Shown: piece by piece, positions 44,001-61,249 of the stretch
Layout of the letters: each line of letters opens with the position of its first letter
Numbering within the stretch: position 1 is the stretch's first letter
Virus record (IMG/VR): IMGVR_UViG_3300007511_001999
Coordinates: 1,464 to 65,463 of that record
DNA length: 64,000 bases
Direction: 5' to 3' (one strand)
Origin: a virus
Taxonomy: Duplodnaviria > Caudoviricetes
Program-made: the position numbers and the translations under genes
The notes under the pieces: generated by a model
The model's input: only the letters and a program-made list of their open reading frames with translations
Database searches by the model: none
Told to the model about the DNA's origin: nothing

Positions 44001-44952
44001 TGTGTCGATTATCAACAATCTCCTGGTTATCTTTAAACCACTGGATGGTGTCCACTATCCCCTCTTCAATGCTGACGGTTGGCTCGAAGCCATGTGACTT
44101 TGCACGAGTCATATCAAATACCCTCCGAGCATCTCCTGTGGGCTTCGTGGTATCCCAGCGTACCTCGATATCTCTTCCACAATGTTTGACTACTAGGTCG
44201 ACAATGGTCTTAATTTGTACTCCGTCGCCAGAACCCAGATTAATAGGGTCCGTTACTCCGTTCTCCACCGCGTGTAGCATACCTAGTGCCACATCGCGGG
44301 AATGAATAAAGTCTCTGATCGGTGACCCATCACCCCATACTTCAAGGTGGTCATTTTCTAGTGCCTTGCGAACCAACGATGGTACTACCATAGCATTTTC
44401 AGGGTCAAAGTTGTCGTATGGACCATACACATTTGCGGGTCGTACTATGGAAACACAGTCCCAACCGTACTGTATAGAATACGCCTGTGCCTGCAATTCT
44501 CCGATCCTCTTGGCCCAACCAGCAAAGCGGTCGTTGTCAGATGGAAAGGTACTCCACACATCATCTTCTCTAAAAACCTCAGCCGGGTGATACACCCCAA
44601 CGCTGCTGGTATAGAGATACCACTTCACTCCCTGTGCTCTTGCCGCCTCCATCATATTGGTGTTAAACTGTAGCATTGGTACCATGAAGTCTGCCGGTTG
44701 TTCTCGGCACATCTTGGGTGAGCCCTTAACCCCAACAAGGTTAAAAACATAGTCCATCCCCTCGCATATCTCCAGGCACTTATCAAAGTATCGCAAGTCT
44801 GCCTTAACAAACTGTACGCTCTCTGGGAGTCCCTGTGGAGTGTCCAGCGAAACTACGTATACCTGGGCTCCTCTCTCCACTAGCAAATCTACTAGGGGGC
44901 GACCTATCATTCCAGTGCCCCCCGTTACTAATACCTTTTGTCCCTCAAACAT
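43984..44952 (-). CDS. GDP-fucose synthase/ColC-like epimerase-reductase
   Basis: VTGGTGMIG, SSVGVY, NVYGPYDNF, VWGDGSPIRDFIH, INLGSG and WDTTKPTG motifs. The YxxxK position reads AGWAK (atypical). Confidence 0.75.
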   Translation of the reverse strand: MFEGQKVLVTGGTGMIGRPLVDLLVERGAQVYVVSLDTPQGLPESVQFVKADLRYFDKCLEICEGMDYVFNLVGVKGSPKMCREQPADFMVPMLQFNTNMMEAARAQGVKWYLYTSSVGVYHPAEVFREDDVWSTFPSDNDRFAGWAKRIGELQAQAYSIQYGWDCVSIVRPANVYGPYDNFDPENAMVVPSLVRKALENDHLEVWGDGSPIRDFIHSRDVALGMLHAVENGVTDPINLGSGDGVQIKTIVDLVVKHCGRDIEVRWDTTKPTGDARRVFDMTRAKSHGFEPTVSIEEGIVDTIQWFKDNQEIVDNRHNAFRK

Positions 44953-46126
44953 TGTTTATCCTTTCACACAAGTCAATTATCTGTTCTCTCGTTAAGTCAG
45001 TATGGTTTCCTACATACAAACTATAGTCATGGATGTGGTCTGCTGTGTCCAGACGACCCACAATCTCATACTCATATAATCCTTCTCTCAGATACGGTTG
45101 GCGGGCTTGGTTGCCCCCTCCTGCTGTTCCGATACGATACTCTACGCCAACCTCCTCTAAGACCCCGGCGATGCGGCAGAGAAGCTCCTTGTCCGTCTCC
45201 TGCAAGATTAGGGGCAGCGCAAAGCTGCTGTTGCCCTCTAGTGCATAGTCGGTGAAGAAACGATTGGAGTCCAGGTGAGAAACCCAGCATTCCAAGTTTT
45301 CAACTCGGCGCGCTATATTTGAATCAAGTCGTTGTAATTGTTCGAGTCCCAGAACCGCATTCATCTCCATGCTGCGCAAGTTATATCCAGGTACAGCAAA
45401 TGTAAATAGAGGATTGAGGTCTGGGTAATTCTTCTTGTAGCGTTCTTGAAATGCTGGTGATGCTTCGCGGGTCATGCCGTGAGAACGGAAGAGGCGCGCA
45501 TATTCATGAAGTTCCGGATTGTTTGTGCAAACAACGCCGCCCTCGATGGTGGTAATGTGGTGGCCAAAATAAAATGAGAAGTTGGACATATCACCAAAGG
45601 CGCCGATCTTCTCTCCGTTATAGGTGGCGCCATGGGACTCACAGCAATCCTCAATCAAAAGAATATTATATCGATCAGCCAGTTCTCTCAATTCTTCTGA
45701 CATAGCATTGAACCCCATCGCATGCACCAAGACAATAGCCTTGGTGTACGGAGTCACAGCCTCTTGAATATTTTCAAACGTCATTGAAAAATTACTTTTA
45801 TCAACATCAACGAAAACAGGCGTCATTCCCAAATTAACCACTGGGGCAATATCAGAAACCCAACCAATGGGGGGCACAATGACCTGGCCAACTCCTTTAA
45901 GTTCTTTAACAATTGACATCATAATATAGTTGGCAGACGCTCCTGAATTTACAAAGGTGGTGTGGTTAACTCCGAGCCACTCGGACCACTTACTTTCAAA
46001 CTCTTTCACTTTTGGGCCGTTCGTGAAACGCACATTGGGGGTTTTAATGAAATCAACCAAAGCCTGCTTATCAGATTCAGTAATATTGTCATTAATCAAA
46101 GGCCACGTAAATCTATTTGGTGCCAT
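44945..46126 (-). CDS. colD: GDP-4-keto-6-deoxymannose 3-dehydratase (ColD-like, DegT family with active-site His)
   Basis: FVNSGASAN, EDCCESHGA and SFYFGHHITTIEGG (His replaces the Schiff-base Lys, as in ColD). GYNLR present. No E1-type CxC-x-C Fe-S segment. Start MAPNR with GGAG SD. Confidence 0.7.
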   Translation of the reverse strand: MAPNRFTWPLINDNITESDKQALVDFIKTPNVRFTNGPKVKEFESKWSEWLGVNHTTFVNSGASANYIMMSIVKELKGVGQVIVPPIGWVSDIAPVVNLGMTPVFVDVDKSNFSMTFENIQEAVTPYTKAIVLVHAMGFNAMSEELRELADRYNILLIEDCCESHGATYNGEKIGAFGDMSNFSFYFGHHITTIEGGVVCTNNPELHEYARLFRSHGMTREASPAFQERYKKNYPDLNPLFTFAVPGYNLRSMEMNAVLGLEQLQRLDSNIARRVENLECWVSHLDSNRFFTDYALEGNSSFALPLILQETDKELLCRIAGVLEEVGVEYRIGTAGGGNQARQPYLREGLYEYEIVGRLDTADHIHDYSLYVGNHTDLTREQIIDLCERINNV

Positions 46127-46649
46127 AATACTCTCCGTATTCAACAATGAGGGTAGGACGTGCGTCCTCTCGTTCATAGGCCTTTTGAAAGGCTGGGAAT
46201 ATATCCTCGGGCTCCTTTAACTCAACCACATCAACATAGGTTAACATCTTCCGGAATGCCTCGGTATGGTTCTGTGTGTGTTGAGGGCCCGCATCAATGG
46301 GCGTTTTTGCCCCAATGGCGACCCGAATGATGACACGGGGTCGCATATCACCGGCAGACATTACATTAATTTTGTCCAAATGGTTCACGAGTTGGTTGCA
46401 AGCAAGAATAAAGAAATCAAAGCGAGGATACATAGTAATCGGAACGAGGCCCGCTAAGGCCATTCCTGTAGACATACCAAGCTGGGTTTCTTCAAAGACC
46501 GGAAGCTCTACACGCTTTTCCATCGGCACATTCACAAGTGTGCTAGAAATAGCATGGCCGCTCACGCGGCAAGCTTGACCCAAGAAAATGGTATCCTCCT
46601 GCTGTCCGAGCCAACTCATTGCCCGAATTAGTTCATCGCGATATTTCAT
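46113..46649 (-). CDS. ThDP enzyme E1-beta/transketolase pyrimidine-binding subunit (single domain)
   Basis: FLGQ, ELPVFEETQLGMSTGMALAG, NQLVNH and GPQH motifs. Lacks the C-terminal domain. Confidence 0.8.
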   Translation of the reverse strand: MKYRDELIRAMSWLGQQEDTIFLGQACRVSGHAISSTLVNVPMEKRVELPVFEETQLGMSTGMALAGLVPITMYPRFDFFILACNQLVNHLDKINVMSAGDMRPRVIIRVAIGAKTPIDAGPQHTQNHTEAFRKMLTYVDVVELKEPEDIFPAFQKAYEREDARPTLIVEYGEYYGTK

Positions 46650-46651
46650 AA

Positions 46652-47284
46652 CTAAAAGTTCACCCATTTTCCAGTTCCATGATGAGGGTATTCCATTTCG
46701 TATGCATAATAAATAACATCATCTGGGATGGGCTGTTTGGTACCCCAAGCCTCGTCTGTAGGCGTATGGACACTCATATTGTTATCTTCGATTACCCACT
46801 GCAAAGGAAGGTTGAAGTTCTTAGCATACTTGTGACTCTCATGAAAGACTCCGCACTCCGATGTCATATCGCCGACAAAGCACCATACGCGATTAGGAGA
46901 GTGGAGCTTCTTTAGGGCGGCTGCAGCCCCGAGTGCCATTGGAATAATTCCTCCTACAATTGAGGATGCATAAAAATTAGGATTGACGTTATTGGTCCCC
47001 ATACTGTTGCCTTTAATGATGTTGGTAAATAGTTTTTCCGCGGGCACTCCATGGAGCAGTGCATGATAGTGGTTGCGCCATGGCACAAAGACCCAATCTT
47101 TTTCGCTTATATATTGAAATATCTCAATTAGCTGTTCCTCGTTGTTCTTCGCTAGGTGGATAGGGCCGGCCACCTCGCCGGCCTCATACTTGTCTCGCAC
47201 ACGCGACTCAAAATCTATCAGTTCAGCAGCAGTATACAGAGGCTCTCGAACCTTCTCTAAGTGTGGTGGTATCTTTAGTGTCAT
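46652..47284 (-). CDS. ThDP enzyme E1-alpha-like subunit (short)
   Basis: GPIHL, WRNHYHALLHG, SIVGG and the ThDP motif GDM...EDN. Confidence 0.8.
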   Translation of the reverse strand: MTLKIPPHLEKVREPLYTAAELIDFESRVRDKYEAGEVAGPIHLAKNNEEQLIEIFQYISEKDWVFVPWRNHYHALLHGVPAEKLFTNIIKGNSMGTNNVNPNFYASSIVGGIIPMALGAAAALKKLHSPNRVWCFVGDMTSECGVFHESHKYAKNFNLPLQWVIEDNNMSVHTPTDEAWGTKQPIPDDVIYYAYEMEYPHHGTGKWVNF

Positions 47285-47760
47285 TATTTATCTCTCGTTT
47301 GTAAAATGGGATTCTCTATTGGCCAATTAATGCCCCAAGACGGATCGTTCCACTTAATTGTAAACTGATCTTGGACATCGGGATAGGTGCCAGGGTATAA
47401 CCACTTATAGTGAAATACTGCTTCATCGCTTAAAACTAAAAAGCCATTACCCACCCCAGGCGGCAATAGAACTTGTTTGCGACTTCTAGAATCCAGTATC
47501 ATCGAATCCCATTGTTTAGTGGTTGAAGAGTCGGTGCGTGGGTCCGCTACTACAAAATATAGCTCTCCATACAAGCAGGTCACTAGCTTCCAAGACTTTT
47601 GGTCCCCGTGGATCCCACGAAGAACATGGCGACGGGAAGTTGAAACCTTATCATGATTAAAGTTGAATCTATGTGAATCAGCGTTCCAGAGAGTCCAAAG
47701 GTCTCCCCTATAATCTGTATATACATCCGGTTGTGTCACCTCTACGCCGTCAATCTTCAT
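47284..47760 (-). CDS. rmlC: dTDP-4-dehydrorhamnose 3,5-epimerase-family protein (RmlC-like)
   Basis: DYRG, STSRRHVLRGIH, KLVTCLYG, GNGF, WNDP..GINWP and RDK motifs. Confidence 0.8.
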   Translation of the reverse strand: MKIDGVEVTQPDVYTDYRGDLWTLWNADSHRFNFNHDKVSTSRRHVLRGIHGDQKSWKLVTCLYGELYFVVADPRTDSSTTKQWDSMILDSRSRKQVLLPPGVGNGFLVLSDEAVFHYKWLYPGTYPDVQDQFTIKWNDPSWGINWPIENPILQTRDK

Positions 47761-48169
47761 TGTTGCTCCAGCTAATCTCCCAATCTTGGAACTCGGCCGC
47801 CAAACAATCTATTTTGTAATCCTTTCGGCCGCCGGCAAGTTCCTGAATCTTGTTCTTTGCAGTATTGCGTATTCCATTGAGGCCGTGGGTCAACTCTAAA
47901 TTGTTACCATCTCTAATCCCTTTTCGGTAGTTCGATTCATTGTGCCAGATATGTAAATTCATCTGCGATAACACAACAATTGCACGGAGGACCTCGGCAT
48001 TTATCTCTTCGGCTTCTGCTAAGCAAACATCAATATCATGACAGATATCTTTAATCTCTTGTGCGTATTCCTCTTTGTGATCTGTAATGAAGACTTCCTT
48101 TAATTGAGTGATGGACAAGCGGTCGACCAGCTCAGCTAAAGTGGGGAGGTATTTTCGTTCACTTGTCAT
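47750..48169 (-). CDS. Helical protein of DUF4254/DUF6165-like type
   Basis: LAELVDRLSITQLK...NLHIWHNE...NGIRNTAKNKI, a pattern recalled from glycan loci. Confidence 0.5.
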   Translation of the reverse strand: MTSERKYLPTLAELVDRLSITQLKEVFITDHKEEYAQEIKDICHDIDVCLAEAEEINAEVLRAIVVLSQMNLHIWHNESNYRKGIRDGNNLELTHGLNGIRNTAKNKIQELAGGRKDYKIDCLAAEFQDWEISWSNNED

Positions 48170-49316: not shown

Positions 49317-49658
49317 CTAGTCTCCCTTCTGTATCCTATGGCTGTCGCTATCGAAATGCTCGGTGGAGAACTCAAATAGTTCAGAGTCCTCTAAAGCAAT
49401 CATCTGATGACGGAGGCCGCGATACACATGAAAGTTCTCGCCGGGGTTCAGCACCAGTTCGGTTGCTTGATCCAAGTCATCGTCGTCTGAATATTTAACT
49501 ATCATCTTACCACTCTGGAGATAAAACACTTCATCTTTTAAGATATGATAGTGCCAAGAGCATCTCTTCCCTTTATCAAAGTAAAGGAGTTTTCCACAGT
49601 ACTCTGGCTTGTTAACTATCCAGCGCTCCCATCCCCATCCTTTATCTACGTGTTGCAT
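49317..49658 (-). CDS. Cupin-domain protein (sugar isomerase-like)
   Basis: VDKGWGWE, SWHYH..KDEVFY and H..RH..EFST motifs. Confidence 0.75.
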   Translation of the reverse strand: MQHVDKGWGWERWIVNKPEYCGKLLYFDKGKRCSWHYHILKDEVFYLQSGKMIVKYSDDDDLDQATELVLNPGENFHVYRGLRHQMIALEDSELFEFSTEHFDSDSHRIQKGD

Positions 49659-49659: not shown

Positions 49660-50610
49660 TTACCACCTAAAGTTATTTTTACAGTCTTCTACGATCTTGA
49701 CTACTTCTTCATCAAAATTTTTCTTTGGTTCCCACCCTAGAGCACGAAGTTTAGAGTCATCTAAAGCATAGCGCACGTCCTGGCCCTGGCGCACAACTGA
49801 AAAATCGATATACTGTTCCCAATTCTCATCTGTTCCATGAAAAGCTTTTACAATCTGCTTAACGGTTTCGCGGTTGCTTTGTTCAAATCCGCCGGCAACG
49901 TTATAAATTTCATCAACGGAGCCTGCCTGGACGATCGTTGTCACAGCCGCGGCAGTGTCCTCCGCATGAAGCCAGTTTCTGACGGGTGTCCCCTGGTTAT
50001 GGAGGCGAATCAGACTGTTCCGCATCAGGTTTTTGACTGCAATTGGAATTAGTTTTTCTGGATATTGTCCTATCCCGTAATTATTTGTCGGCCGCAGGAT
50101 GATATAGTTGATTCCGTAGGTCCGGGCCCACGCATGAACAAGCATATCTGCCGAAGCTTTTGCCGCAGAGTATGGATTGCTGGGCTTTAGAAGATCTGTT
50201 TCGGTGTGCTGCCCGTCTGTGATGTCTCCGTAGACTTCATCTGTGCTCACATGAAAGAAAATGGGGCGATTATTGCAGTTTAGTGGCTTATGGCGCACCA
50301 AATCAAGAAGGTTTTTAACCCCCACAATGTTGCTGTTAATAAATTCGTCGCTATTAATGATACTGTTACCCACATGTGACTCTGCCGCGAAGTTAATGAT
50401 ATAGTCACAATCATAAAGATGTGTTAAATTACAGATGTCTTCTCGTAAAAACTTAAAATTATCATAAGTTTCAAACTCTTTCAGCAAAGATTCGTTGGCG
50501 ACATAAGTACACTTGTCTACGCCATAAACTTTCCAGCCTAATTCTAGGCATTTTCGCGTAGCATAGGAGCCTATAAAGCCCAAACATCCTGTAATGTAAA
50601 CGATTTTCAT
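49660..50610 (-). CDS. rmlB: dTDP-glucose 4,6-dehydratase-like (RmlB family)
   Basis: TGCLGFIGS, NFAAESHV, VSTDEVYGD, PSNPYSAAK, NNYG..QYPEKLIP and RxGQDVRY motifs. Confidence 0.85.
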   Translation of the reverse strand: MKIVYITGCLGFIGSYATRKCLELGWKVYGVDKCTYVANESLLKEFETYDNFKFLREDICNLTHLYDCDYIINFAAESHVGNSIINSDEFINSNIVGVKNLLDLVRHKPLNCNNRPIFFHVSTDEVYGDITDGQHTETDLLKPSNPYSAAKASADMLVHAWARTYGINYIILRPTNNYGIGQYPEKLIPIAVKNLMRNSLIRLHNQGTPVRNWLHAEDTAAAVTTIVQAGSVDEIYNVAGGFEQSNRETVKQIVKAFHGTDENWEQYIDFSVVRQGQDVRYALDDSKLRALGWEPKKNFDEEVVKIVEDCKNNFRW

Positions 50611-51947
50611 TGATATTTCTCCATAAACCGATTCACAGAACCCTCAATATAGTCTAATTTCTCATCCGTAATACCCGCAAAAGTGCCCAAAAAGAACGAA
50701 TTAGTGGTGATTTTATAAGCTACTGGGAACGATTCTTTAAGATTATCATACTTTGCTCCTATTTTTGAATATCCTGGGTGGAACAGTATGTTGCCGGCGA
50801 AGTAGCTGCGAGTCTGTATCTTATCCCCTTCTAGGTGTCGGACGATGTCCTCGCGAGTGAAGGGTGCATCCTCCCTGAGTGTTAATAAAAAGGCAAACCA
50901 ACACGGATCCGACTTGGGGGTGGGCTCTGGGAGATGGCAGTATTTGGCATAAGGCTCGAAAATCTCATGCAAACGTGCAAAGTTTTTACGGCGCGCTCCG
51001 TCCATCATCGGAAGCTTCTTAAGTTGCTGCAACCCCATAGCTGCTTGTAATTCTAAAGGCTTGATATTATAGCCAATTTCCTCGAAAACATAGCGATGAT
51101 CTGCGATGATCTCTCTGGCACCCGGAAGCCAATTTTTGAATCTATTGCCACAAGCTGTCCCGCTTAAGACGCACCCGGGCTTAACAGAGTTGCAATAGCA
51201 GGCGCGGCCCCAATCACGGAAGCTACTGATAATTTTTTCTAGTCGAGCGGAGTTCATCGCGACGAAGCCGCCTTCGCCCATAGTCATATGATGAGCAGGG
51301 TAAAATGAACAGGTTGAGATATCCCCAAAAGAGCCGAGCTTCTTGCCGTCATATGTCGAGCCCAAAGCATCGCAAGCGTCTTCTAAGAAAAGTAAGTCAT
51401 ATTTCTCTACTAGGGCCATTACGCGGTCCATGTCGGGAGGGTTCCCGAGTACATGCGCGAACATCAATGCGCGGATCTCTTTATTAGTATCGGCAGCTAG
51501 CAGTGCCTCGACCTGATCAAGATCCAGGTTTAAATCTGGAAGCGTGACATCGACGAAAACCGGCTCGAATCCATTCTGGATGATCGGATTAAGCGTTGTG
51601 GGGAAACATACAACGGGGGTAATGATTTTGGACCCCTCCGGGAGCTGCTTCCACCTTTGAGATTTAAGCGCCGAAACCATAAGCAGGTTTGCAGAGCTAC
51701 CTGAGTTTGTCAGGACTCCATGAGTCTTTCCCAAGTGCGTAGGAAACTCGACTTCAAATTGACGGCCCTTTTTGCCTAGTACGAGCCATCGACTAAGCAG
51801 GCTTTCCACAGCAGCAACGTATTCGTCACTATTGTATACGTTGCCTGAGTAGGCGATCCAATCCTCACCAGGAGTCCACTGCTCAGCGGATTCACACTCT
51901 TTAATATATTCGTCTACCAATGATAAAATGGTTTCTAATTTAGACAT
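50607..51947 (-). CDS. rfbH: CDP-4-keto-6-deoxyglucose 3-dehydratase E1 (DdhC/RfbH/AscC)
   Basis: NSGSSANL, FPTT.NP, AHVLGNP, EDACDALG, SFYPAHHMTMGEGG, the Fe-S segment RDWGRACYC...C and GYNIK. Confidence 0.9.
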   Translation of the reverse strand: MSKLETILSLVDEYIKECESAEQWTPGEDWIAYSGNVYNSDEYVAAVESLLSRWLVLGKKGRQFEVEFPTHLGKTHGVLTNSGSSANLLMVSALKSQRWKQLPEGSKIITPVVCFPTTLNPIIQNGFEPVFVDVTLPDLNLDLDQVEALLAADTNKEIRALMFAHVLGNPPDMDRVMALVEKYDLLFLEDACDALGSTYDGKKLGSFGDISTCSFYPAHHMTMGEGGFVAMNSARLEKIISSFRDWGRACYCNSVKPGCVLSGTACGNRFKNWLPGAREIIADHRYVFEEIGYNIKPLELQAAMGLQQLKKLPMMDGARRKNFARLHEIFEPYAKYCHLPEPTPKSDPCWFAFLLTLREDAPFTREDIVRHLEGDKIQTRSYFAGNILFHPGYSKIGAKYDNLKESFPVAYKITTNSFFLGTFAGITDEKLDYIEGSVNRFMEKYQ

Positions 51948-52764
51948 TCTCTTCACTTTCCACTACTTGCCGAATTCCGGCGTCGAGGCCAATCAAATCA
52001 AGGCCTAAGCCTTCCAAACGATCGCTAGCACCAGTATAAGTGTACGCATATCCTGGTTTTTCTACTATAACACCTGTTGGAGCTTTTGTCAAATTATTTA
52101 ATATCGATGCAACTGCCGTGAGACTGGTTTTTTCTGCGTAGCACATGTTGTAATCAACGTATTGGGTTTGTTTTTTTGTCATGAGAAACTCCACAACCTT
52201 GATAAGATCTTTAACATAAAAGAAATCCATCTTTCGATCTTGAGTAATAAAAACCGGGAGATTGTCTCGCTGGCGCGCTAAAGAGTTCTTGATGAATCTC
52301 GTACTATTCTCCATTGTACCAAAACAACCGAATAAACGCAAGTTAATAATATTTTTATTATATAAGATAATCTCGCGAGCAATTAAATTTTTGGCTAAGC
52401 CATAATAGTCAGTGGGAATACACCCATAAATAGCTTCTTCATGGGCCAACTCAACATTGGAATATCTATCGAATTCTGCTCCGGATCCGAAGGAGAACAT
52501 CCACTTATATTTATCAGCGTGGGCCTTAAGATTGTGAAACATGCTTAAGTTAGCTCGGAGGGACGCGAAACTATTATCTCCTTTAACGGCGGCATGTAAA
52601 ACAATATCAAATTTACGACCAGCAAAAAATGCGCTGACATCCTCAGCATTTGTGAGGTCTAGTACTTGCCGGGGGGCAGCTGTTATATTATGAGATGTCT
52701 TAGAAAAATGGCTTTCGAATTCTTTTCCTAAAAAGCCATTTGCTCCGGTTATTAAGATATTCAT
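51940..52764 (-). CDS. NAD-dependent sugar epimerase/reductase (extended SDR)
   Basis: ILITGANGFLG, GSGAEF, YGLAK and LRLFG motifs. Confidence 0.8.
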   Translation of the reverse strand: MNILITGANGFLGKEFESHFSKTSHNITAAPRQVLDLTNAEDVSAFFAGRKFDIVLHAAVKGDNSFASLRANLSMFHNLKAHADKYKWMFSFGSGAEFDRYSNVELAHEEAIYGCIPTDYYGLAKNLIAREIILYNKNIINLRLFGCFGTMENSTRFIKNSLARQRDNLPVFITQDRKMDFFYVKDLIKVVEFLMTKKQTQYVDYNMCYAEKTSLTAVASILNNLTKAPTGVIVEKPGYAYTYTGASDRLEGLGLDLIGLDAGIRQVVESEENV

Positions 52765-52775
52765 TTAACACTAGA

Positions 52776-53711
52776 TCATTCAACCCATTTTGTAGACTTT
52801 TTAAGTTCAACAAGCTGCTCATCCTTAATCGAATAAGAATAGGCAGCACCAGGGAAGGCGCCCGTATGCACATCAACAACATATTGTTCAATTGCCATCT
52901 TAGCTAAAACAAGAAGGCCGTCGCCGCGTTCTTTGCGACCAAGCTGTCGAAGGTCTCCCGCGGCCGAGAGATAGTCAGTAAATTTGCCAACAACCTCAGG
53001 AATATAACACTTGGCAAACCACGGCCTAAAGGACTGATAAAATCCCATTAAATCATGCATGATAACAAGCTGGCCGTCAACTCCGGCGCCGGCTCCGATT
53101 CCATAAATGGGAATTTCAAGTTGCGCAGCGATTTGGGCTGCAGGCTCGGCCGGCATAGCCTCTAGCAAGATTGCAAAGGCTCCTGCTTCCTGAAGTGCCA
53201 ACGCATCCTCAAGGGTGGCTTCGAAGCTTTTAATTGTTTTACCCTGAACACGATAGCCGCCGAAAGAAGTGGTGCTCTGAGGGGTGAGGCCGAGATGACC
53301 CACTACTGGAATTCCTGCGTCGACGATGGCGCGGACTCGCGACGCAACGCGGAGGCCACCTTCGAGCTTAATTGCATCTGATGCGCATTCCTTAACGAAT
53401 CGCAGCGCGTTTCGCACTGCCTCTTCGTCGCTGACCTCATAAGACCCTTGGGGCATATCCCCTACGATAAAGGTGTTGGGGGCGCCCCGTCGAGCGGACG
53501 AGGCCATGAACACCATTTCATCCATTGTGACCGGGTTAGTGGTGTCATATCCTAGTTGAACCATTCCGCCGGAGTCACCTACAAGAATCATGTCGACTCC
53601 CGCTTCTTCGGTGACCTGAGCAAATGGTAGATCATAGGCGGTGATCCAAGTGAGTGGTGTACCATTTTTCTTCATGGATACAAAATCTAGTATTGTTTTC
53701 TTTGTTGCCAT
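52776..53711 (-). CDS. panB: 3-methyl-2-oxobutanoate hydroxymethyltransferase family (PanB)
   Basis: TAYD, ILVGDS, VGDMP, IKLEGG, GHLGLTPQ, GIGAG and DGQ motifs all present. Confidence 0.9.
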   Translation of the reverse strand: MATKKTILDFVSMKKNGTPLTWITAYDLPFAQVTEEAGVDMILVGDSGGMVQLGYDTTNPVTMDEMVFMASSARRGAPNTFIVGDMPQGSYEVSDEEAVRNALRFVKECASDAIKLEGGLRVASRVRAIVDAGIPVVGHLGLTPQSTTSFGGYRVQGKTIKSFEATLEDALALQEAGAFAILLEAMPAEPAAQIAAQLEIPIYGIGAGAGVDGQLVIMHDLMGFYQSFRPWFAKCYIPEVVGKFTDYLSAAGDLRQLGRKERGDGLLVLAKMAIEQYVVDVHTGAFPGAAYSYSIKDEQLVELKKSTKWVE

Positions 53712-55498
53712 TATTCCTCCTTAAGTGGCGTGACTATCATATTCTCAAAAAATTCTTCTCTGTCCAGAAAAGGAAACATATCTTCCAGGGGTCTAGAAAT
53801 GAGTCTTCCGTCTGGGAGCTTCTTTGAGCCAATAGTTGGCAAGACCGCGTCCCACTTTTTACACATCACCTCACAGATCACCGGACCTTTGTATTCTAAC
53901 ACCCTTTTAACGCTTCTTTTAAGGCCTTTAAGCTTCGAAGTTCTAAAATACTTGATGCCATAAGCATTTGCTATTTTTTGAAAATTGGGAAATGACACTC
54001 CGGAGTCTTCGTCTGTGCCGATAAACCTATCCTCAAAAAATTTTCTTTGTGTTGTGCGAATAGAAAGATAGCCATTGTTATTCCAAACAAAGATCTTCAC
54101 TGGAAGTTGATTATGGACGATCGTTTGCAGTTCCTGTATATTACTCTGAAATGAGCCGTCGCCGGTGATTCCTATTACATCTTTCTTACCGCGGGCAATA
54201 CAGGCGCCAATACTTGCCGGGAGAGTAAAGCCCATGTCGGCCTGTCCCCCTGATGTAATATAGCGCTGCTGGTCTGTCACCTGAAGCGCCTGCGATGTTA
54301 CATAAAAGGCGGAGCCGGCGTCTGACACCACCACATCATCGGGGCGCATCGAGTCGGACAGCACCTTCATAAAAGCATAAAGACTAATTCCGTCTTCATC
54401 GCTTTCAAAGTGCTCCGGAAGAGAGACTGGCCATTTTGTTTTCCAGGCCAAGCATTTCTGAGCCCACGGGGTGGGGGCCGGAGGAAAGCCGGCCTTGAGC
54501 AAAAACTCTTTGGCATCTGCTACAATCAGGTGATCCACCCGAACCGTGTTTTTCTGGTGTTCAAACTTGTCGATGTCAACAACAATAAGCTTGGCTTCCC
54601 GACCAAATAACTCGTATCGATAACCAGTGACTGGAACCCCCAATCGCGTGCCTATAGCCAAAATTACATCGGCATTTTGCATAGCAAAGTTGGCAGCTCG
54701 GTTTCCTTTAATCCCTACTCGGCCAATGTTGAGGGGATCATCAGAGGATAAAAGATCTGCAGCTAAATATGTGTTAACCACCGGGATGTTATGGAGATGT
54801 ACGAACTTTGAAAAAATGTCCTTTGCGCCGGAGAGGCGGATTCCGTTCCCAGCGAGGATTACTGGGCGCTCGGCTTGTGCAAGATATCGACTAACAGCCG
54901 CAAGATCTTCTACCTCAGGAATATAAGACTCCTTTTCAGGCACAAAGCGCGGTAATTCGGACGGTTCAATCAGAGCGGCCTGGACATCCATAGGAATATC
55001 GAGCCACACCGGGCCGGGCCTTCCGCTGAAAGCTAGGTGGATTGCTTTATCAATATGAAAAGCGATCATTTCAGGGTCATTAACCAAGACTGCATATTTC
55101 GTCAACGACTGAACAATAGCAATAATATTAGCTTCTTGAACCCCAAGCTGGCGCAAGGGCAAATCAATATTGCCCGTAGCCTGTTCTTTGTTAACTTGTC
55201 CGGAAATAAAAAACGTAGGAAGGTTGTCCTGCCAGGCTTCCAAGAGCCCCGTGATAGTATTAGTGCTTCCACAGCCCGTAGTGGGCATCACAACGCCCAT
55301 TTTGCCACTGTATTTGCCGTATCCAACAGCTGCCATAGCAGAAGCCTGTTCGTGGTGACTACAAACGGCTTGAAGTTTGGGATTTTTAGCTACGCCATCG
55401 TTTAGGAACATGGCACCCCCACCTGTTAAGGTGAAAACGTGTTCAACTCCCAGCTCAACAATACGCTGTGCCACATAATCTGTAACCCGCGTTGGCAC
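53711..55498 (-). CDS. ThDP-dependent acetolactate-synthase-like enzyme (YerE-like sugar C-acyl branching enzyme)
   Basis: GGGAMFLND, HHEQASAMAA, ISGQV, RQLGVQE, GRPGPVWLDIP, MGF.LP and GDGS...NNNGY motifs. The GGGAMxLND start and sugar-gene context fit the O-antigen-associated subfamily. Confidence 0.8.
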   Translation of the reverse strand: MPTRVTDYVAQRIVELGVEHVFTLTGGGAMFLNDGVAKNPKLQAVCSHHEQASAMAAVGYGKYSGKMGVVMPTTGCGSTNTITGLLEAWQDNLPTFFISGQVNKEQATGNIDLPLRQLGVQEANIIAIVQSLTKYAVLVNDPEMIAFHIDKAIHLAFSGRPGPVWLDIPMDVQAALIEPSELPRFVPEKESYIPEVEDLAAVSRYLAQAERPVILAGNGIRLSGAKDIFSKFVHLHNIPVVNTYLAADLLSSDDPLNIGRVGIKGNRAANFAMQNADVILAIGTRLGVPVTGYRYELFGREAKLIVVDIDKFEHQKNTVRVDHLIVADAKEFLLKAGFPPAPTPWAQKCLAWKTKWPVSLPEHFESDEDGISLYAFMKVLSDSMRPDDVVVSDAGSAFYVTSQALQVTDQQRYITSGGQADMGFTLPASIGACIARGKKDVIGITGDGSFQSNIQELQTIVHNQLPVKIFVWNNNGYLSIRTTQRKFFEDRFIGTDEDSGVSFPNFQKIANAYGIKYFRTSKLKGLKRSVKRVLEYKGPVICEVMCKKWDAVLPTIGSKKLPDGRLISRPLEDMFPFLDREEFFENMIVTPLKEE

Positions 55499-56235
55499 TA
55501 CTTATCCCCATACCATTTAACACGCCAATAGCCACGGATTGTATCATCATAATTGGTTGTTTCTCTGTGCATTCCCCAGGTGGCTTGCCCCGGGTGCCAT
55601 CGGTAGTTATATCCGAGGTATCTATCCGCCGGGAAAATGAATACATTGTTGTCTGCGAGCCGAAAATATAAATGATAATCTGCAGCGCCCAAATATTGTG
55701 GATCCCATCGCAAAAGGCCGCGGTCCTTTAGTTTGCGACTATACACCATAGTAGGGGTATTCACGGGGCTGTGGTGAAACAATTGTTCTTTGAACTCTGT
55801 GAGGCTCTTATAGTTGTGAGCAACCTCTCCCCGAAAGTCTTCCTCAAGGCCCTGGACTCCGCGAATAGGGCTTTGGAATGCTAATATCTTCGAGGGAGCT
55901 TTTGATATGTATTGCATGAAATTTTCTACATACTCTGGTGTTATATAATCGTCGGCTCCTAAAATAGTAATGTAATCGCCGGTGCTGAGACTAAGTCCTT
56001 CTGTAACCGGCTCTTCCCAGGAATACCGATATAGGTTGGGGGCTGTCGACACAATAAGCGCGGGGTGCGTCTCTTGTACCTTCTTAACAATTTCTAAACT
56101 ACGATCTGTACTTTCGTTATCTACCAAAATTACTTCGGTATTTTCATAGGTTTGATTGAGAGCGGATGTGACACACTTCTCAATCCACTTTTCGGCATTG
56201 TAACAGGGGATAATAATTGTGACTTTTAAACTCAT
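55498..56235 (-). CDS. GT2 (GT-A) glycosyltransferase
   Basis: IIIPCYNAEKWI, VDNESTD and LGADD motifs. Confidence 0.85.
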   Translation of the reverse strand: MSLKVTIIIPCYNAEKWIEKCVTSALNQTYENTEVILVDNESTDRSLEIVKKVQETHPALIVSTAPNLYRYSWEEPVTEGLSLSTGDYITILGADDYITPEYVENFMQYISKAPSKILAFQSPIRGVQGLEEDFRGEVAHNYKSLTEFKEQLFHHSPVNTPTMVYSRKLKDRGLLRWDPQYLGAADYHLYFRLADNNVFIFPADRYLGYNYRWHPGQATWGMHRETTNYDDTIRGYWRVKWYGDK

Positions 56236-57065
56236 TGCATTAGTCCTATAATAAGGTTAGGGATCTCTTCTCTTTTAGATCTCATCTTTTCAACCAGGTC
56301 TACACCCTTCAGCTCAAACCAATCCTCTTGGGTGGCCCCAACTAGTTTGTTGGTAATCACCTTCATTCCCATCATGCGACTTTCCACAACAATCCGAGAA
56401 AGCGTCTCCGGAGTCTGCGGGAAAAATACCAACGTATCATTTTCTCCCAGTTGGTCTAAAAATTTATGGTAGTCATTTCCAGAGCACAGAGTGTATTCTC
56501 GGTCCGTCGCCTTGCAGTATCTCACTGCTGTTGGGGTATTTTTATGTGCGATCGGTGAATCTAGTATTGCACACTTATTTTGTTTATCACGAAGAGCTAA
56601 AGTTTCCAACATCTGCAGCGCGCTTTCGGTCCAAAGATTTCCCCCGACACTTTCAATATTGTCGAGCTTCAAGTTTCTTTTAACTATATTAGCATGAAAG
56701 GTGCTTTGACACAAGACCTTCCTTGCTTTTTGGTAAAACTCTACGTTTATCAGGTCATAGGCCGGCGCAGTAAAATTCTTATAGCGCGCAGGATCTCTGG
56801 TTTTTAGATATTTGTGATCATGCTCATAGATTACATAATTTTTAGACTTGAGGGCTTCTCGGGATTGTTGAGAAAGGCCTAAAAAGTTAGCTACAATAAA
56901 TAATTTTGCGCCGCAGGTACTAATGTATGATGCATCAACTTGTTGACTTTTCTTTGCCTCAACAGTCTGGCCCTTTGCGCGAAGAAGTTCAATCAATTCT
57001 TGATTATTAAGTTCACCGCCGCCCATAATTTCATGAGCAAAAAAGTCGGCTATAAAAACAATCAT
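56232..57065 (-). CDS. GT-B (GT4-like) glycosyltransferase, compact
   Basis: GGGE near the N-terminus, EHDHK, and PETLSRIVVESRMMG (E-x7-E). Confidence 0.65.
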   Translation of the reverse strand: MIVFIADFFAHEIMGGGELNNQELIELLRAKGQTVEAKKSQQVDASYISTCGAKLFIVANFLGLSQQSREALKSKNYVIYEHDHKYLKTRDPARYKNFTAPAYDLINVEFYQKARKVLCQSTFHANIVKRNLKLDNIESVGGNLWTESALQMLETLALRDKQNKCAILDSPIAHKNTPTAVRYCKATDREYTLCSGNDYHKFLDQLGENDTLVFFPQTPETLSRIVVESRMMGMKVITNKLVGATQEDWFELKGVDLVEKMRSKREEIPNLIIGLMQ

Positions 57066-57067
57066 AA

Positions 57068-58351
57068 TTAGTCATGTACTTCGAGATCAAACCCCTCAAG
57101 CCACACATCAACATCTAGTTCAGACTCATCAACAATAAGCGATACAAATTTAGCATATTGCCCTTCTTTACTAAAGTTTTCAAATACATACTTCTGGAGT
57201 GCTTTGGCTTGGTTTTTAAAGTGAACTGGCTTATTGACAATGTCTCGCAGCGCGCGACGGTACGAGGTTTCTTTGGCATACGTCCACATAGAGTCCGCCT
57301 GAATGACTCCCTCCCATCGGGCAGCTTCCTGTACTGGGGCAAGATCATAGTCCACCCGAGCAACTCGTGGGACTTGCTTACCTTTCTTATTGGGGCGACA
57401 AATGAAGTCCATCTGTCCTCCCCATGTAACTGTTACAATTGGAAGACCATTATACGCAGCCTCAAAAAGTGGCAAACCAAAACCTTCTCCATGAGACAGG
57501 CTAATTAGCGCCTGCATGGTGGGATGCTGGTAGAGCCACGTCATCTGTTCTTCGGAGAGTTGTCCGTGCACTAAATAAATCTTGCACTTCCGTTCTGGAA
57601 AGTCATGAATCAAAGCTTCGAGGCGACGCTTGGTGTGGACGCGGTCCAAAATACTTTCGTTTGCCGAATTCAACTTTAATACAAGACCCACATCTTCATC
57701 ATCATAAAACTCACTACAAAAAGCGCGAACTGTTTGCTCGACGTTCTTCCGGATTCCCCACTGTTTCACACATAAAAAGTTTTTAGTCGTTTCAAAAGGA
57801 ATATCGAGACCATCCGGATCTGGTGGGATATCTTTAACCGGATAACTAATAAACTCTACTGGCTTTGTTACACGCCAGCCCTTTATAACCTCACCCGTCT
57901 GGGGGTTGGGTACATCATATGTTGTTTTTTCAATGACCTTTTTAGAGTGACTCGAAATAGTAATCACCCTATCCATCGTGTTGTTGATCATCTCGATCCA
58001 CTGGGGAGCAATTTTATTTGTTTCGATGCCGGCAGTATATCCTATATTAATGGGAGCAATTCTCTCGAATTCGTTAGGAATTGTTACCTGAAACGACATA
58101 TCAAATTGGGGGGCCTGCTCCTGTTCATTACAGTGTTGCACGTACTGATTTGTTTTGAGGATTAGCGAGTCTAGCCATTGGCGCTCTTCGCTGTGTTCCG
58201 CTATCATGCCCGTGTTTCCCCAAGGAATATTAATAAGATAAATGTCAAATAGATCTTCGCGGGAACGCATTGATCGTAACGAAAAGCGAGATTGCTCTCC
58301 ATAACCAGACCGCGACAGGGCCGGTGCTTTCACCAGGATTTTTTTCTTCAT
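57068..58351 (-). CDS. GT4 glycosyltransferase
   Basis: SGYG, RKN, and SHGEGFGLPLFEAA (E-x7-E). Confidence 0.85.
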   Translation of the reverse strand: MKKKILVKAPALSRSGYGEQSRFSLRSMRSREDLFDIYLINIPWGNTGMIAEHSEERQWLDSLILKTNQYVQHCNEQEQAPQFDMSFQVTIPNEFERIAPINIGYTAGIETNKIAPQWIEMINNTMDRVITISSHSKKVIEKTTYDVPNPQTGEVIKGWRVTKPVEFISYPVKDIPPDPDGLDIPFETTKNFLCVKQWGIRKNVEQTVRAFCSEFYDDEDVGLVLKLNSANESILDRVHTKRRLEALIHDFPERKCKIYLVHGQLSEEQMTWLYQHPTMQALISLSHGEGFGLPLFEAAYNGLPIVTVTWGGQMDFICRPNKKGKQVPRVARVDYDLAPVQEAARWEGVIQADSMWTYAKETSYRRALRDIVNKPVHFKNQAKALQKYVFENFSKEGQYAKFVSLIVDESELDVDVWLEGFDLEVHD

Positions 58352-59601
58352 TATAAAACCTCAACTCCATATGATTTGTAGCCAGCTCTATTATCCCAGG
58401 AGCCCTTTTCGTCATAAATTTTAGTAAGCAACGTATCCCATCGGTCCAAGAACGTTTCAAAATTGAACTGCTTAAGAACATATTCACGGCCTAGGCGCCC
58501 GAGTTCATCCCGCTCTTCCTGGGATTTATAGAACATCTCTTTCATCGCAGCGACGACTGCTTCCTCAGAAAGTCGATCCTCATAAATATAAGGTACATTC
58601 TGTGATCCAATTACCGCTTTCGAGACGGGCTCGATGCCAATTCCAAAAGTAGTAGTACCATCCGTAATTTGATCTTGCATTCCTCCGGTAAGATTCACAA
58701 TGATGGGCTTCTCACAAGCCAAAGATTCCAAAGTAGCCAAGCCAAAGCCTTCTGCATCAGAAATATTGATAGTGCAGTCAATAGCGTTATACAACATTGC
58801 CAATCCGGGGGTGTCCATTTTCTCTCTAGAAAAAAGTACCTGGCCGCTAGTTAGTCCAAGCTCAGAAATAATCGCATTTAGATCCTGCCCGTTGGGGTCC
58901 TTAGGTTCCGTATGCATAATGAGAGATGCCTTGTCATGACCTACTTCATCGAGGAACGTTTTAAACCAAAAAATAAGGCTTCCGGATTGTTTTCGGCGCG
59001 CGTTGCGATTGTTCCAGAAAAAGTAAAACTTATTCTCATCAAAGCGCTCTTGGGTAAAGCGAGATACCACCTCTGGTTCTAGCTTCTTAAAAATATCTGT
59101 ATCTACTGCATGCGGGAGGTACGAAGACTCGACCTCAGGCGCGACGTTCTGAACAATATCATATGTAAGCTTAGAGATACAAGCTACATGATCATTTGAA
59201 TCATAGTATGGTTTGTTGAATTTAGGGTAAGGGTAGTTGTCCCAGACATGATAATAGACCATTGGAACCTGGGGCCGAATTTCATTTTCGATTCCCCAAA
59301 GCCACTCATAAAAGCGCGGATCTGTCATAAACCACAAGATATCTGGCTTCTGCTGGCCAATCATTGCGCGGACTTGATCGGCGGACCCATATCCATCAAC
59401 GGGCCAAATAATCCAATCCTCCCCCCACTTTTCTGTTTTTTGTGGGTTGTGGTCTGGATGAGAAATTGCTCCTCCAAACGACACAAATTCATACTTGCCG
59501 GTTTTAAGCATGCCCTCAATCATATATTTAGTTTGAGTGCCCACCCCGGAAGGCGAAAGAGGGTGATCGCTGATCGTAAAGATCTTAATTTTATCTGACA
59601 T
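58351..59601 (-). CDS. GT4 glycosyltransferase
   Basis: SGVG, PHAVD, NRNARRK and AEGFGLATLESLAC motifs. Confidence 0.85.
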   Translation of the reverse strand: MSDKIKIFTISDHPLSPSGVGTQTKYMIEGMLKTGKYEFVSFGGAISHPDHNPQKTEKWGEDWIIWPVDGYGSADQVRAMIGQQKPDILWFMTDPRFYEWLWGIENEIRPQVPMVYYHVWDNYPYPKFNKPYYDSNDHVACISKLTYDIVQNVAPEVESSYLPHAVDTDIFKKLEPEVVSRFTQERFDENKFYFFWNNRNARRKQSGSLIFWFKTFLDEVGHDKASLIMHTEPKDPNGQDLNAIISELGLTSGQVLFSREKMDTPGLAMLYNAIDCTINISDAEGFGLATLESLACEKPIIVNLTGGMQDQITDGTTTFGIGIEPVSKAVIGSQNVPYIYEDRLSEEAVVAAMKEMFYKSQEERDELGRLGREYVLKQFNFETFLDRWDTLLTKIYDEKGSWDNRAGYKSYGVEVL

Positions 59602-59610: not shown

Positions 59611-60390
59611 TTATCTACAATGTTCTGTTTTGTAAAGTTTGCAACGATACGGCTTTTCGCAAGACAGACGATTTTTAATTGAGAATCGTTTAGAAATATT
59701 ATAAATGGCTTGGTATAGAAGTTTAAGGGCGTTCTCGGTTTTTTTCTCACCGCTCGTTACTCTAAATATCTCTACACGATCTTTTTTAGCCGTTCTTTTT
59801 AGTAATGCAAAGTGAGTTTCTACGTTTTCGGGGTCGATTTTGTGCTTTAAGCAAAAGAAATGTTTATATAGAGTCAATTGATAGGTGACTATTTTCTGGC
59901 TCTTGCGGCGGGAGTCCCAGCCCCATGAGCACGTCTTCCAATCAAAAAGATGATATGTGTCGCCCACCTTAACTACAGCATCTACAAAGCCCTTAAAATG
60001 AATATTAAAATCTTCAATCGGCACATAAAGCTTCTCCTCCGAAGAAAACACTTCATAGTCACCGAAATAAGCTGCAAGAGCTTCATCAATTTGCGCCAAG
60101 ATTTCAGGACCACATGATTTCATTTGCTCCACATTCTTAGGATCAACTTCGATGTTTTTTTCCATCAGCTCCTGCAGCTGCTTATCAAAGCCTATCTGGA
60201 ATAACTCCTTTTCGTCAATGTCCTCTTTTAGAAGCTTCTTCTCGCAGACTTCATGTATTGCGGTTCCAAATGCCGTATGTTCGTTCCCCTCAAAGGAGGA
60301 GACCCTCTCAATCCAAGTTTTTTTATGGTAATGGGGGCATGTTGCCCAGTCTTTTAGTTCGGAATAGGATATGTGTTCACGCGTCGTCAT
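59611..60390 (-). CDS. PD-(D/E)XK nuclease, Cas4/AddB-like with a probable Fe-S cysteine staple
   Basis: ISYS...CP, FGTAIH, E-x-L, GFVDA, DWKT, QLTLY and three C-terminal Cys. Likely start MTTRE. Confidence 0.8.
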   Translation of the reverse strand: MTTREHISYSELKDWATCPHYHKKTWIERVSSFEGNEHTAFGTAIHEVCEKKLLKEDIDEKELFQIGFDKQLQELMEKNIEVDPKNVEQMKSCGPEILAQIDEALAAYFGDYEVFSSEEKLYVPIEDFNIHFKGFVDAVVKVGDTYHLFDWKTCSWGWDSRRKSQKIVTYQLTLYKHFFCLKHKIDPENVETHFALLKRTAKKDRVEIFRVTSGEKKTENALKLLYQAIYNISKRFSIKNRLSCEKPYRCKLYKTEHCR

Positions 60391-60994
60391 TAAGTATATT
60401 ATCAATCTTTTGGTAGAGTACGGGGCTCACAGCTTTTACAAGGCCCGGGCCATCGAGAAAGAACTTCTCGAACCCGTTGGCAAAGTATTCCTGAATGGAA
60501 GTGGCGCCGTACGGTGAAGCAAAGAGGCCCATTGTCAAATTGAGCAGCATAGGATATCCTACCACACTCGATAGGAATTCGTCAAACTTTTTATTATATT
60601 CAGTCTGATCATAAAGGAGCGGATTTATCTCAAATCCTTCTGCTTCTAGGATGTCTCTCAAGCGGCGACGCTTACCAAGGAATTCTTGTAAAAGATTATC
60701 GTCGTAAATTTCCCAGCCGCGGTCTTCTTCTAAAGAGTGGGCCACCTCATGTATAAAGTTCTCTAAGATATCAAAGTTGGTGGGCTCATCCCCTGTAATA
60801 TATATAGCGCTGTTAGCGTACGCAGCATTGCGGCCATCTAACTCCTTAAACTTACCAATATATACCACCTCTACATTCCGTAAAAGATTTGGAGGAAGCA
60901 CCTCTTCAACCTCTTGACAGAAAACAGGTATATCGACTGCCGGCGAAGGCGCAGATAGTATAAAAACTGGAATATTGTAAATGTAATATTCCAT
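60377..60994 (-). CDS. Zincin-type metallopeptidase-like protein
   Basis: FIHEVAHSLE (HExxH) with downstream Y...EYFA. Confidence 0.65.
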   Translation of the reverse strand: MEYYIYNIPVFILSAPSPAVDIPVFCQEVEEVLPPNLLRNVEVVYIGKFKELDGRNAAYANSAIYITGDEPTNFDILENFIHEVAHSLEEDRGWEIYDDNLLQEFLGKRRRLRDILEAEGFEINPLLYDQTEYNKKFDEFLSSVVGYPMLLNLTMGLFASPYGATSIQEYFANGFEKFFLDGPGLVKAVSPVLYQKIDNILNDDA

Positions 60995-61242: not shown

Positions 61243-61249
61243 TTATCTC

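Follow-up and report, generated by a model that had tools for sequence, protein, structure and literature searches.

A sugar-gene cassette containing a PanB homologue

The window analysed here is a 64 kb stretch of the IMG/VR record IMGVR_UViG_3300007511_001999, which is 65,463 bases long with a CheckV completeness of about 43%, and its source is a fragment from an uncultured large myovirus-like phage. The minus strand carries all long open reading frames (ORFs) of the window and, at 49660-56235, it encodes six proteins without gaps: a GT2 glycosyltransferase, a thiamine diphosphate (ThDP)-dependent enzyme, a homologue of the vitamin-B5 (pantothenate) enzyme PanB, a short-chain dehydrogenase/reductase (SDR), an RfbH (E1)-type 3-dehydratase and an RmlB-like 4,6-dehydratase. 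An earlier note on this DNA had described a contiguous cassette whose ThDP and PanB genes are coupled through TAATG. Both descriptions held, as every gene was found in place with its family matched by profile (Table 1), and the ThDP stop and PanB start codons overlap in TAATG with AGGAGG upstream. TAGTG is common to the GT2 stop and the start of the ThDP gene. Because the PanB look-alike is coupled to a predicted sugar-branching ThDP enzyme inside a deoxysugar operon, it most likely helps to build an undescribed carbon-branched sugar, not vitamin B5.

The RfbH protein scored 471 bits with NF011936 (cut-off, 423), and its best solved relative was E1 (3BCX) with 340 bits, compared with 173 bits for ColD. 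It contains the motif SFYPAHH, in which His222 replaces the Schiff-base lysine, and a cysteine set of C195-X57-C253-X-C255-X6-C262. The reference [2Fe-2S] motif of E1, which we take to be C-X57-C-X-C-X7-C, differs from this set in the last spacing. Judging from these scores and motifs, we regard RfbH as a bona fide E1-type enzyme. The 4,6-dehydratase matched TIGR01181 with 297 bits, under the cut-off of 365, and the cytidine diphosphate (CDP)-glucose-type model with 73 bits, and by these scores it is closer to dTDP-glucose dehydratases than to those of the CDP type. The former label of a CDP-yersiniose-like cassette was thus not sustained, and the likeness to yersiniose is an analogy only because the dehydratase is RmlB-like. 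The SDR carries GANGFLG (GxxGxxG) and YGLAK (YxxxK) motifs and gave weak RmlD matches in the PDB.

The ThDP enzyme contains the domains PF02776, PF00205 and PF02775, with a GDG-X26-NN motif at residue 446. The models of acetolactate synthase (ALS) are its best NCBIfam matches, but it remains below all cut-offs for ALS or acetohydroxyacid synthase (AHAS), the best scores being 363 bits against 738 and 359 against 538. Among solved structures, the best relative was JanthE (8RPH), whose 437-bit match covers residues 4-588 and takes in a C-terminal extension not present in AHAS, whereas PpYerE (5AHK) and plant AHAS reached 269 and about 262 bits, respectively. Since PpYerE scores no better than AHAS, the YerE-like placement rests on JanthE. 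JanthE, from Janthinobacterium sp. HH01 (PDB 8RPH, 8RPI and 8RPJ), is YerE-like and joins 2-oxoacid donors, of which it accepts a range, to ketones, according to the available portions of PMC12188165 and of the review PMC12247030; its ThDP motif is CDG, whereas that of the window enzyme is GDG. Based on these comparisons, the window enzyme is classed as JanthE/YerE-like and not AHAS-like, and ketone carboligation is predicted. No ACT-type protein, as in an ALS small subunit, was seen among the Pfam-scanned ORFs, the small-subunit family itself not having been searched.

These scores bear on an explanation in which both genes are auxiliary metabolic genes. Here, the ThDP enzyme would be an ALS and PanB a true ketopantoate hydroxymethyltransferase (KPHMT), which together would direct host pyruvate to pantothenate and coenzyme A, or to valine, and the sugar-gene setting would be incidental. 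Both steps indeed lie on the route from pyruvate to pantoate, and ALS models rank first in NCBIfam. Against it stand the scores under every ALS cut-off, the clear preference for JanthE over AHAS and the position of the translationally coupled pair between the GT2 and the SDR-RfbH genes. The earlier note had also seen no panC here, and panC was not found on the 65-kb contig or in any of four CheckV-complete viral relatives carrying the PanB-ThDP pair (G011-G014; 0/4). PanB aside, no pan or ilv family occurred among 39 Pfam-scanned ORFs, a scan that excluded the giant ORFs, and no family-specific search was made for panD, panE, ilvC, ilvD or the ALS small subunit.

The PanB paralogue, its clade and its gene partners

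PanB scored above the cut-offs of all its profiles (PF02548, 1e-93 and 314 bits against 28.7; TIGR00222, 282 bits against 207.55; NF001452, 305 bits against 272). The conserved set given in the available portion of PMC13488298 comprises E. coli D45/46, D84, K112, E114, H136 and E181 together with the motifs LVGDS and HLGLTPQS. That the core motifs are kept, as had been noticed before, was confirmed: LVGDS and HLGLTPQS are present, and D46, S47, D85, K115, E117, H139 and E184 align with E. coli 1M3U. The AlphaFold2 model, with a predicted local distance difference test score (pLDDT) of 91.6, is a PanB TIM barrel that Foldseek matched to 1M3U with an E value of 4e-28 and a TM score of 0.93 by target. 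Since 21/21 aligned clade members keep the metal-binding and other catalytic residues unchanged, the substrate is likely to be a 2-oxoacid. Which of these invariant residues bind the substrate carboxylate we presume from their roles in E. coli KPHMT. The retention of all catalytic residues and the score over the TIGR00222 cut-off would also suit a true KPHMT, as the auxiliary-gene explanation has it.

To see the gene partners of PanB, we scanned viral sequences by profile, which gave 114 matching stretches; 80 loci were kept, and viral counts hereafter cover those 80. A ThDP enzyme was present in 78/80 loci and lay within 300 nt of PanB in 70/80, so that the link of PanB to this enzyme, which had been supposed to be conserved, is so in viruses. 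An RfbH/ColD-like gene was found in 68/80 loci, and an SDR homologue after PanB in 52/80. The order was ThDP enzyme then PanB in 61 of the 78 linked loci. Two loci had no ThDP enzyme: in L101, PanB is at the contig edge, while the PanB of L112 groups with the canonical PanBs and has their residues. Among viral PanBs, canonical residues occur in this one alone, which lacks a ThDP neighbour, a further point against the auxiliary-gene explanation.

Viral PanBs fall into two types. Type L, the kind found in the window, has W22, G48, Q88 and an insertion, whereas type S has L48 and Y88 without the insertion. Both types carry L182, M186, Y203, V211, L215 and I217 in place of the V, V/I, I, C, V and V, respectively, that predominate in canonical PanBs, and the window motifs IPIYGIGAG and DGQLVIMHD stand against canonical IPVIGIGAG and DGQILVMHD. 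Residues 203-217 fall within two of the four pocket motifs listed in the available portion of PMC13488298. Residues 215 and 217 correspond to I212 and V214 of E. coli KPHMT, hot spots at which mutations broaden the nucleophile scope; the E. coli enzyme behaves as a promiscuous class II aldolase on varied 2-oxoacids (both as reported in the available text of PMC7610986).

A C-terminal insertion of PanB had been pointed out in the earlier note. The insertion is real and spans residues 239-265, which is 27 residues, or the string given there plus one residue. E. coli 1M3U lacks it, as do 59-61 of 61 canonical PanBs according to the alignment column, and in the model it forms two short helices that precede the C-terminal helix. 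R259, R262, D264 and G265 are conserved within it in type L, and PanB also has a C-terminal tail of about 18 residues. The insertion is not, however, a mark of repurposing. We rejected it as a hallmark of the repurposed PanB on the grounds that it is absent from 23 dereplicated type S viral PanBs, every one of which is ThDP-linked; because the linkage of the insertion-less type is the same, the insertion does not determine it.

Phylogenetic trees were built with an IQ-TREE quick search (120 rows) and with FastTree (160 rows). The long-form clade comprised 43/120 rows with a support of 96 in the former. In the latter, the ThDP-linked PanBs were all in an 88-row group (support 94), apart from a canonical clade of 61 rows (support 97) that takes in all 7 unlinked canonical copies. 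From this placement, we judge that the PanB of the window is not a housekeeping enzyme. It shares the fold, the profile scores over the cut-offs and the metal-binding and catalytic residues with the housekeeping PanBs of E. coli (1M3U) and M. tuberculosis (1OY0), but differs from them in its clade, the lack of a panC partner, the 27-residue insertion and residues G48, Q88, L182, Y203, V211, L215 and I217 at or next to the pocket motifs. The separate clade and the near-constant ThDP link in viruses support the repurposing of PanB that had been put forward. Two of the three conditions under which the earlier note would have given it up, a PanB nested among housekeeping enzymes and an unconserved link to the sugar genes, were checked in this way, and neither held. 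In GenBank phages, we found no close PanB homologue, the best being panB of Microcystis phage MaAM05, with 40% identity and adjoining panC.

When we scanned bacteria, taking one genome per species, 26 loci had a PanB that was 64-71% identical to that of the window over its full length, insertion included. The hosts of this long form belong to Elusimicrobia, Acidobacteriota, Bacteroidota, Cloacimonadota, Ignavibacteria, Oligoflexia, Krumholzibacteria, Saccharibacteria and Falkowbacteria. Whole-genome searches found a second, canonical PanB alongside the long form in G003, G004, G007, G008 and G009, and a fragmented one in G006. In G003 and G004, panC directly adjoins the canonical copy, while the long form adjoins the ThDP enzyme. 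In G001, G002 and G005, which are incomplete metagenome-assembled genomes (MAGs), the long form was the only PanB, and panC was not found. The long form is a rare type: an even sampling of 300 further genomes from the phylum to which G008 belongs gave 0/300. We therefore rejected the idea that it is the housekeeping PanB of Acidobacteria and other phyla, given the canonical second copies in G007-G009 and its absence from those 300 further genomes. Considering that PanB lies outside the housekeeping clade and that bacteria keep a separate panB-panC pair, besides the points above, the auxiliary-gene explanation seems quite improbable.

Some loci of other organisms showed further arrangements around PanB. 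In a second cassette architecture (L004 8476-15241; also the L053, L055 and L060-L073 types), PanB precedes a class B ThDP enzyme that is 31-38% identical to that of the window, compared with 45-69% for the class A enzymes. In three phyla, the gene immediately upstream of that for the long-form PanB encodes a protein of about 415 residues with no Pfam family (L010 8595-9851, L017 8654-9925 and L016 8716-9960). Its copies in L010 and L017 share 57% identity, and the L016 copy has about 25% with either of them; this protein may be a second conserved partner of the PanB paralogue. In Acidobacteriota and Ignavibacteriota (L025 6655-11981; L026 7438-10915), genes for MetY-like (Cys_Met_Meta_PP) and alpha/beta-hydrolase proteins come before the long form, and L025 also has a GHMP kinase downstream. 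Beside such MetY/MetX-like and GHMP-kinase genes, the PanB paralogue could, on the doubtful proposal made below that it produces 4-hydroxy-2-oxobutanoate, provide an aspartate-independent route to homoserine. In a Bacteroidota MAG, it follows two HpcH/HpaI aldolase genes (L008 7793-10927).

Proposed pathway and alternatives

Longer-branched sugars are made by a YerE-like enzyme that uses a gamma-hydroxy-2-oxoacid from an aldolase whose gene is adjacent (Steitz et al. 2022, PMC9306805). The clusters described are those of erwiniose (ErwI/ErwJ, ErwE and ErwF; Pectobacterium atrosepticum), caryophyllose (MMAR_2331/2332; Mycobacterium marinum) and gastriose (MygI/E/F; Mycobacterium gastri), and ErwE rejects pyruvate but accepts 4-hydroxy-2-oxobutanoate, 4-hydroxy-2-oxopentanoate and 4-hydroxy-2-oxohexanoate (PMC9306805). 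The cassette of the window has the same gene logic, with genes for a 4-keto-3,6-dideoxy acceptor, a YerE-like ThDP enzyme, an NAD(P)H reductase and a glycosyltransferase, and an enzyme able to make a gamma-hydroxy-2-oxoacid donor likewise adjoins the ThDP gene. In contrast with the pyruvate aldolases of those clusters, the donor maker here is a PanB paralogue dependent on methylene-tetrahydrofolate (methylene-THF), and the added unit would therefore be a one-carbon (C1) unit, CH2OH. The cassette also differs in that its dehydratase is RmlB-like and not of the CDP type and in that it is phage-borne. No aldolase family was found among the scanned ORFs of the sugar island, and because PanB occupies the aldolase position, we call the cassette a variant of the unifying scheme. 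The idea put forward earlier is a variant of the published scheme for acyl-branched sugars (PMC9306805) and not a wholly new chemistry. The system for yersiniose A in Yersinia pseudotuberculosis (DdhA-D, YerE and YerF) is similar in its E1-type 3-dehydratase, ThDP branching enzyme and reductase acting on a 4-keto-3,6-dideoxyhexose, but YerE uses pyruvate and needs no donor-making enzyme, as far as the available portions of PMC9306805 and PMC12247030 describe it. The contig of the window, by comparison, has no E3 (DdhD) or DdhA-type gene, and PpYerE is no closer to its ThDP enzyme than AHAS is (269 vs 262 bits). A literature search gave no description of a PanB-ThDP pairing for branched sugars, although a mention in published gene-cluster lists or supplements remains possible.

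We favour, at a probability of roughly 0.55, a phage pathway to a nucleoside diphosphate (NDP)-activated, C4-acyl-branched 3,6-dideoxyhexose that neighbouring glycosyltransferases would install, with PanB standing in for the aldolase of the published scheme. In this pathway, the RmlB-like dehydratase would form an NDP-4-keto-6-deoxyhexose, from which the E1-type RfbH, with electrons supplied by the host, would take off the 3-OH to give the NDP-4-keto-3,6-dideoxyhexose acceptor. PanB, through its Mg-enolate chemistry, would hydroxymethylate a free 2-oxoacid with 5,10-methylene-THF to a gamma-hydroxy-2-oxoacid, in place of the pyruvate aldolase of the erwiniose, caryophyllose and gastriose clusters. 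The YerE/JanthE-like enzyme would decarboxylate this acid and join the acyl anion to the C4 keto group, the SDR would reduce the branch carbonyl, and the GT2 and GT4 enzymes would use the branched sugar. We infer the chemical steps, the donor and the sequence in which PanB and the ThDP enzyme act from the gene identities, clade placement and linkage described above. PanB is placed in the role of the aldolase because ErwE takes gamma-hydroxy-2-oxoacids and PanB chemistry yields exactly such an acid.

As to the donor, 4-hydroxy-2-oxobutanoate from pyruvate is a tentative choice, ketopantoate from 2-oxoisovalerate seems slightly less probable still, and other acids take up the remainder. The bulkier pocket residues and the steric demand that a quaternary ketopantoate donor would bring make a smaller substrate, such as pyruvate, an attractive guess. 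A more specific and doubtful proposal is that the whole ThDP-linked PanB group, types L and S, constitutes a distinct 2-oxoacid hydroxymethyltransferase that would act on pyruvate or 2-oxobutyrate, not on 2-oxoisovalerate, and make 4-hydroxy-2-oxobutanoate. In phages and candidate-phyla bacteria, this acid would feed the YerE-like enzyme to give an undescribed 4-C-(1,3-dihydroxypropyl)-3,6-dideoxyhexose on cell-surface or virion glycans. The bulkier pocket (V to L, I to Y and V to I) and the acceptance of 4-hydroxy-2-oxobutanoate by ErwE are compatible with such an enzyme but do not prove it.

Several observations weigh against the pathway that we favour. Of the 27 bacterial loci, nine have a ThDP enzyme inside the flank that was fetched, each time among sugar genes, nine have no ThDP enzyme despite at least 5 kb on both sides, eight have a flank too short to judge and one has a canonical PanB (L029). 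The surroundings of the nine unlinked loci include MetY/MetX-like genes, AsnA and unknowns, and in five of these genomes that were searched, no close ThDP partner was found elsewhere, the best match being 37% identical. Because these nine loci carry the same type of PanB with no ThDP enzyme nearby, the PanB clade has at least one use outside the proposed pathway, and linked and unlinked members are interspersed in the trees. Furthermore, PanB scores above the equivalog cut-off, and for this reason it may still form ketopantoate in the ordinary way, while the gene order carries no information on the reaction order. The pathway is also incomplete without the host. No member of the NTP_transferase family was found on the contig or in the four complete relatives (0/4). 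The absence of an E3 reductase (DdhD), noticed earlier, was verified in that neither Fer2 nor an FNR-type NAD_binding_1 domain is on the contig, and Fer2 was likewise found in 0/4 of the relatives. Sugar activation and E1 reduction would therefore depend on the host or on unrecognised genes, such as those of two PF01467 nucleotidyltransferase-like proteins (Table 1), which are the only candidate sugar-activating enzymes on the contig given that the NTP_transferase family is missing from it.

Hydroxymethylation could instead follow the branching. In that case, the ThDP enzyme, like YerE, would add an acetyl group from pyruvate to the 4-keto sugar, and PanB would then hydroxymethylate the methyl ketone of the NDP-sugar, with Mg chelated by the alpha-hydroxy-ketone, so that a 3-hydroxypropanoyl branch results. 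This is formally analogous chemistry, the four conserved residues of the type L insertion could bind a nucleotide, and the prevailing gene order, with the ThDP enzyme first (61/78), agrees with it. Type S PanBs, however, lack the insertion and are linked just as much, and the residues that we take to hold the carboxylate of the substrate in E. coli KPHMT do not vary. The same type of PanB is also found in bacteria with no ThDP or sugar genes nearby. In the studied precedent, moreover, the side chain is built before the branching, and ErwE does not take pyruvate (PMC9306805). We thus consider hydroxymethylation after branching unlikely.

The L004-type loci bear on another alternative, in which PanB and the ThDP enzyme would make a free acyloin or hydroxy-acid that later becomes an O- or N-acyl substituent on an amino sugar, with no C-branch. 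The cassettes of these loci include radical SAM/SPASM, B12-radical SAM and methyltransferase genes, and L004 pairs PanB and the ThDP enzyme with them without RfbH or a 4,6-dehydratase within 10 kb. The island of the window also encodes DegT-family enzymes, a further point for this alternative. Both of these proteins, however, have His-His for the Schiff-base lysine and are best matched by 3-dehydratases, so that no aminotransferase is evident. Neither an acyltransferase nor a ligase nor a carrier protein was among the scanned ORFs of the island, and the closest relative of the ThDP enzyme to have been characterised joins donors to ketones, as the available portion of PMC12188165 describes. The acyl-substituent alternative is hence rather improbable, and even jointly the three alternatives seem less plausible than not.

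If the branched-sugar pathway is correct, the scheme for acyl-branched sugars gains a folate-dependent C1 donor-building step, and a new branched deoxysugar that could be made in vitro is predicted. It would also give a function to a PanB paralogue of phages, candidate-phyla bacteria, Elusimicrobia, Bacteroidota and Acidobacteriota. Viral genes labelled panB and acetolactate synthase would be misread as auxiliary genes of vitamin-B5 or branched-chain amino-acid metabolism, when in the loci examined the two are almost always together inside sugar operons. New pairs of ThDP enzyme and PanB are likewise on offer to synthesise tertiary alcohols.

The surrounding sugar island and contig

The cassette lies in a sugar island of about 40.0 to 63.1 kb, whose GC content is similar to that of the remaining window. 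Upstream of the GT2 gene, the region with two GT4 glycosyltransferases likely holds users of the cassette sugar. A GT2 homologue (40-79% identity) precedes the ThDP gene in 16/80 viral loci. The 277-residue protein between the GT4 and GT2 genes keeps its position in 19/80 loci with 45-82% identity, and a PDB search for it gave no match. On the other side of the cassette, the small cupin gene has 66-77% nucleotide identity to Synechococcus and Prochlorococcus phages and is the sole part with DNA-level likeness to cultured cyanophages.

Table 1. Positions of the cassette genes and of other features in the window
Feature	Position	Strand	Match or remark
GT2 glycosyltransferase, 245 aa	55498-56235	-	PF00535 3e-28
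YerE/JanthE-like ThDP carboligase, 595 aa; proposed sugar C-branching enzyme	53711-55498	-	three TPP_enzyme domains
PanB paralogue, 311 aa, type L	52776-53711	-	PF02548, TIGR00222
RmlD-like short SDR, 274 aa; proposed branch ketoreductase (YerF/ErwF role)	51940-52764	-	PF01370/PF04321 (Epimerase/RmlD_sub_bind)
RfbH/DdhC (E1)-type pyridoxamine phosphate (PMP)-dependent 3-dehydratase, 449 aa	50607-51956	-	NF011936
RmlB-like NDP-hexose 4,6-dehydratase, 316 aa	49660-50610	-	PF16363 4e-59
Small cupin, 113 aa; possible sugar isomerase/epimerase	49317-49658	-	PF07883
277-aa protein and two GT4 glycosyltransferases	56232-59601	-	syntenic across many viral loci
277-aa protein	56232-57065	-	no known family
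139-aa protein	47750-48169	-	
Second deoxysugar module	41325-47760	-	
RmlC-like epimerase	47284-47760	-	second module
Truncated pyruvate dehydrogenase (PDH)-E1 alpha-like protein, 210 aa	46652-47284	-	second module
Truncated PDH-E1 beta-like protein, 184 aa	46113-46667	-	second module
ColD-like 3-dehydratase	44945-46177	-	SFYFGHH; best PDB match ColD, 185 bits
Split HldE-like pair	40029-41323	-	PfkB kinase and PF01467
Second PF01467 protein	62598-63119	-	
Upstream island end	59611-62566 and 63460-63535	-	PIN-PhoH fusion (438 aa), PD-(D/E)XK nuclease, tRNA-Thr(TGT)
gp25	29290-29673		baseplate genes
Baseplate wedge	27481-29271		PHROGs match
Giant ORF, 4732 aa	11722-25920	-	among baseplate genes
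Giant ORF, 2065 aa	29712-35909	-	among baseplate genes

Structural genes fill the first 40 kb of the window and encode a baseplate wedge, gp25, a lysozyme-like protein and the two giant ORFs, which lie among the baseplate genes. In a PHROGs search with 10 structural ORFs, the baseplate wedge was the sole match. The wedge protein is 29-31% identical to its Microcystis and Flavobacterium phage counterparts, and cultured phages are distant relatives only. An ordinary T4-like cyanophage is not supported as the source, as the DNA-level match to cyanophages is limited to the cupin gene and the wedge protein has only this identity with the Microcystis and Flavobacterium phages. The upstream end of the island holds a PIN-PhoH fusion, a PD-(D/E)XK nuclease and a tRNA-Thr.

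The island of the PanB cassette also contains a second deoxysugar module. Besides the RmlC-like epimerase, the truncated PDH-E1 alpha- and beta-like proteins and the ColD-like 3-dehydratase, it holds two Fcl-like SDRs and a GMD-like dehydratase. The E1 alpha/beta pair was seen again in 6/80 viral loci. The module resembles the alpha-KADH2 route to C2-branched sugars, as outlined in the available portion of PMC12247030 (section 2.2), and by this analogy the phage may produce two different branched sugars. The 139-residue protein encoded between this module and the cupin gene had no Pfam, NCBIfam or PDB match; it is 72-97% identical in 12/80 viral loci and often lies directly upstream of PanB in loci with the order PanB then ThDP enzyme. 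Near the other end of the module, the split HldE-like pair consists of a PfkB kinase and a PF01467 nucleotidyltransferase-like protein, and a second PF01467 protein is encoded towards the upstream end of the island.

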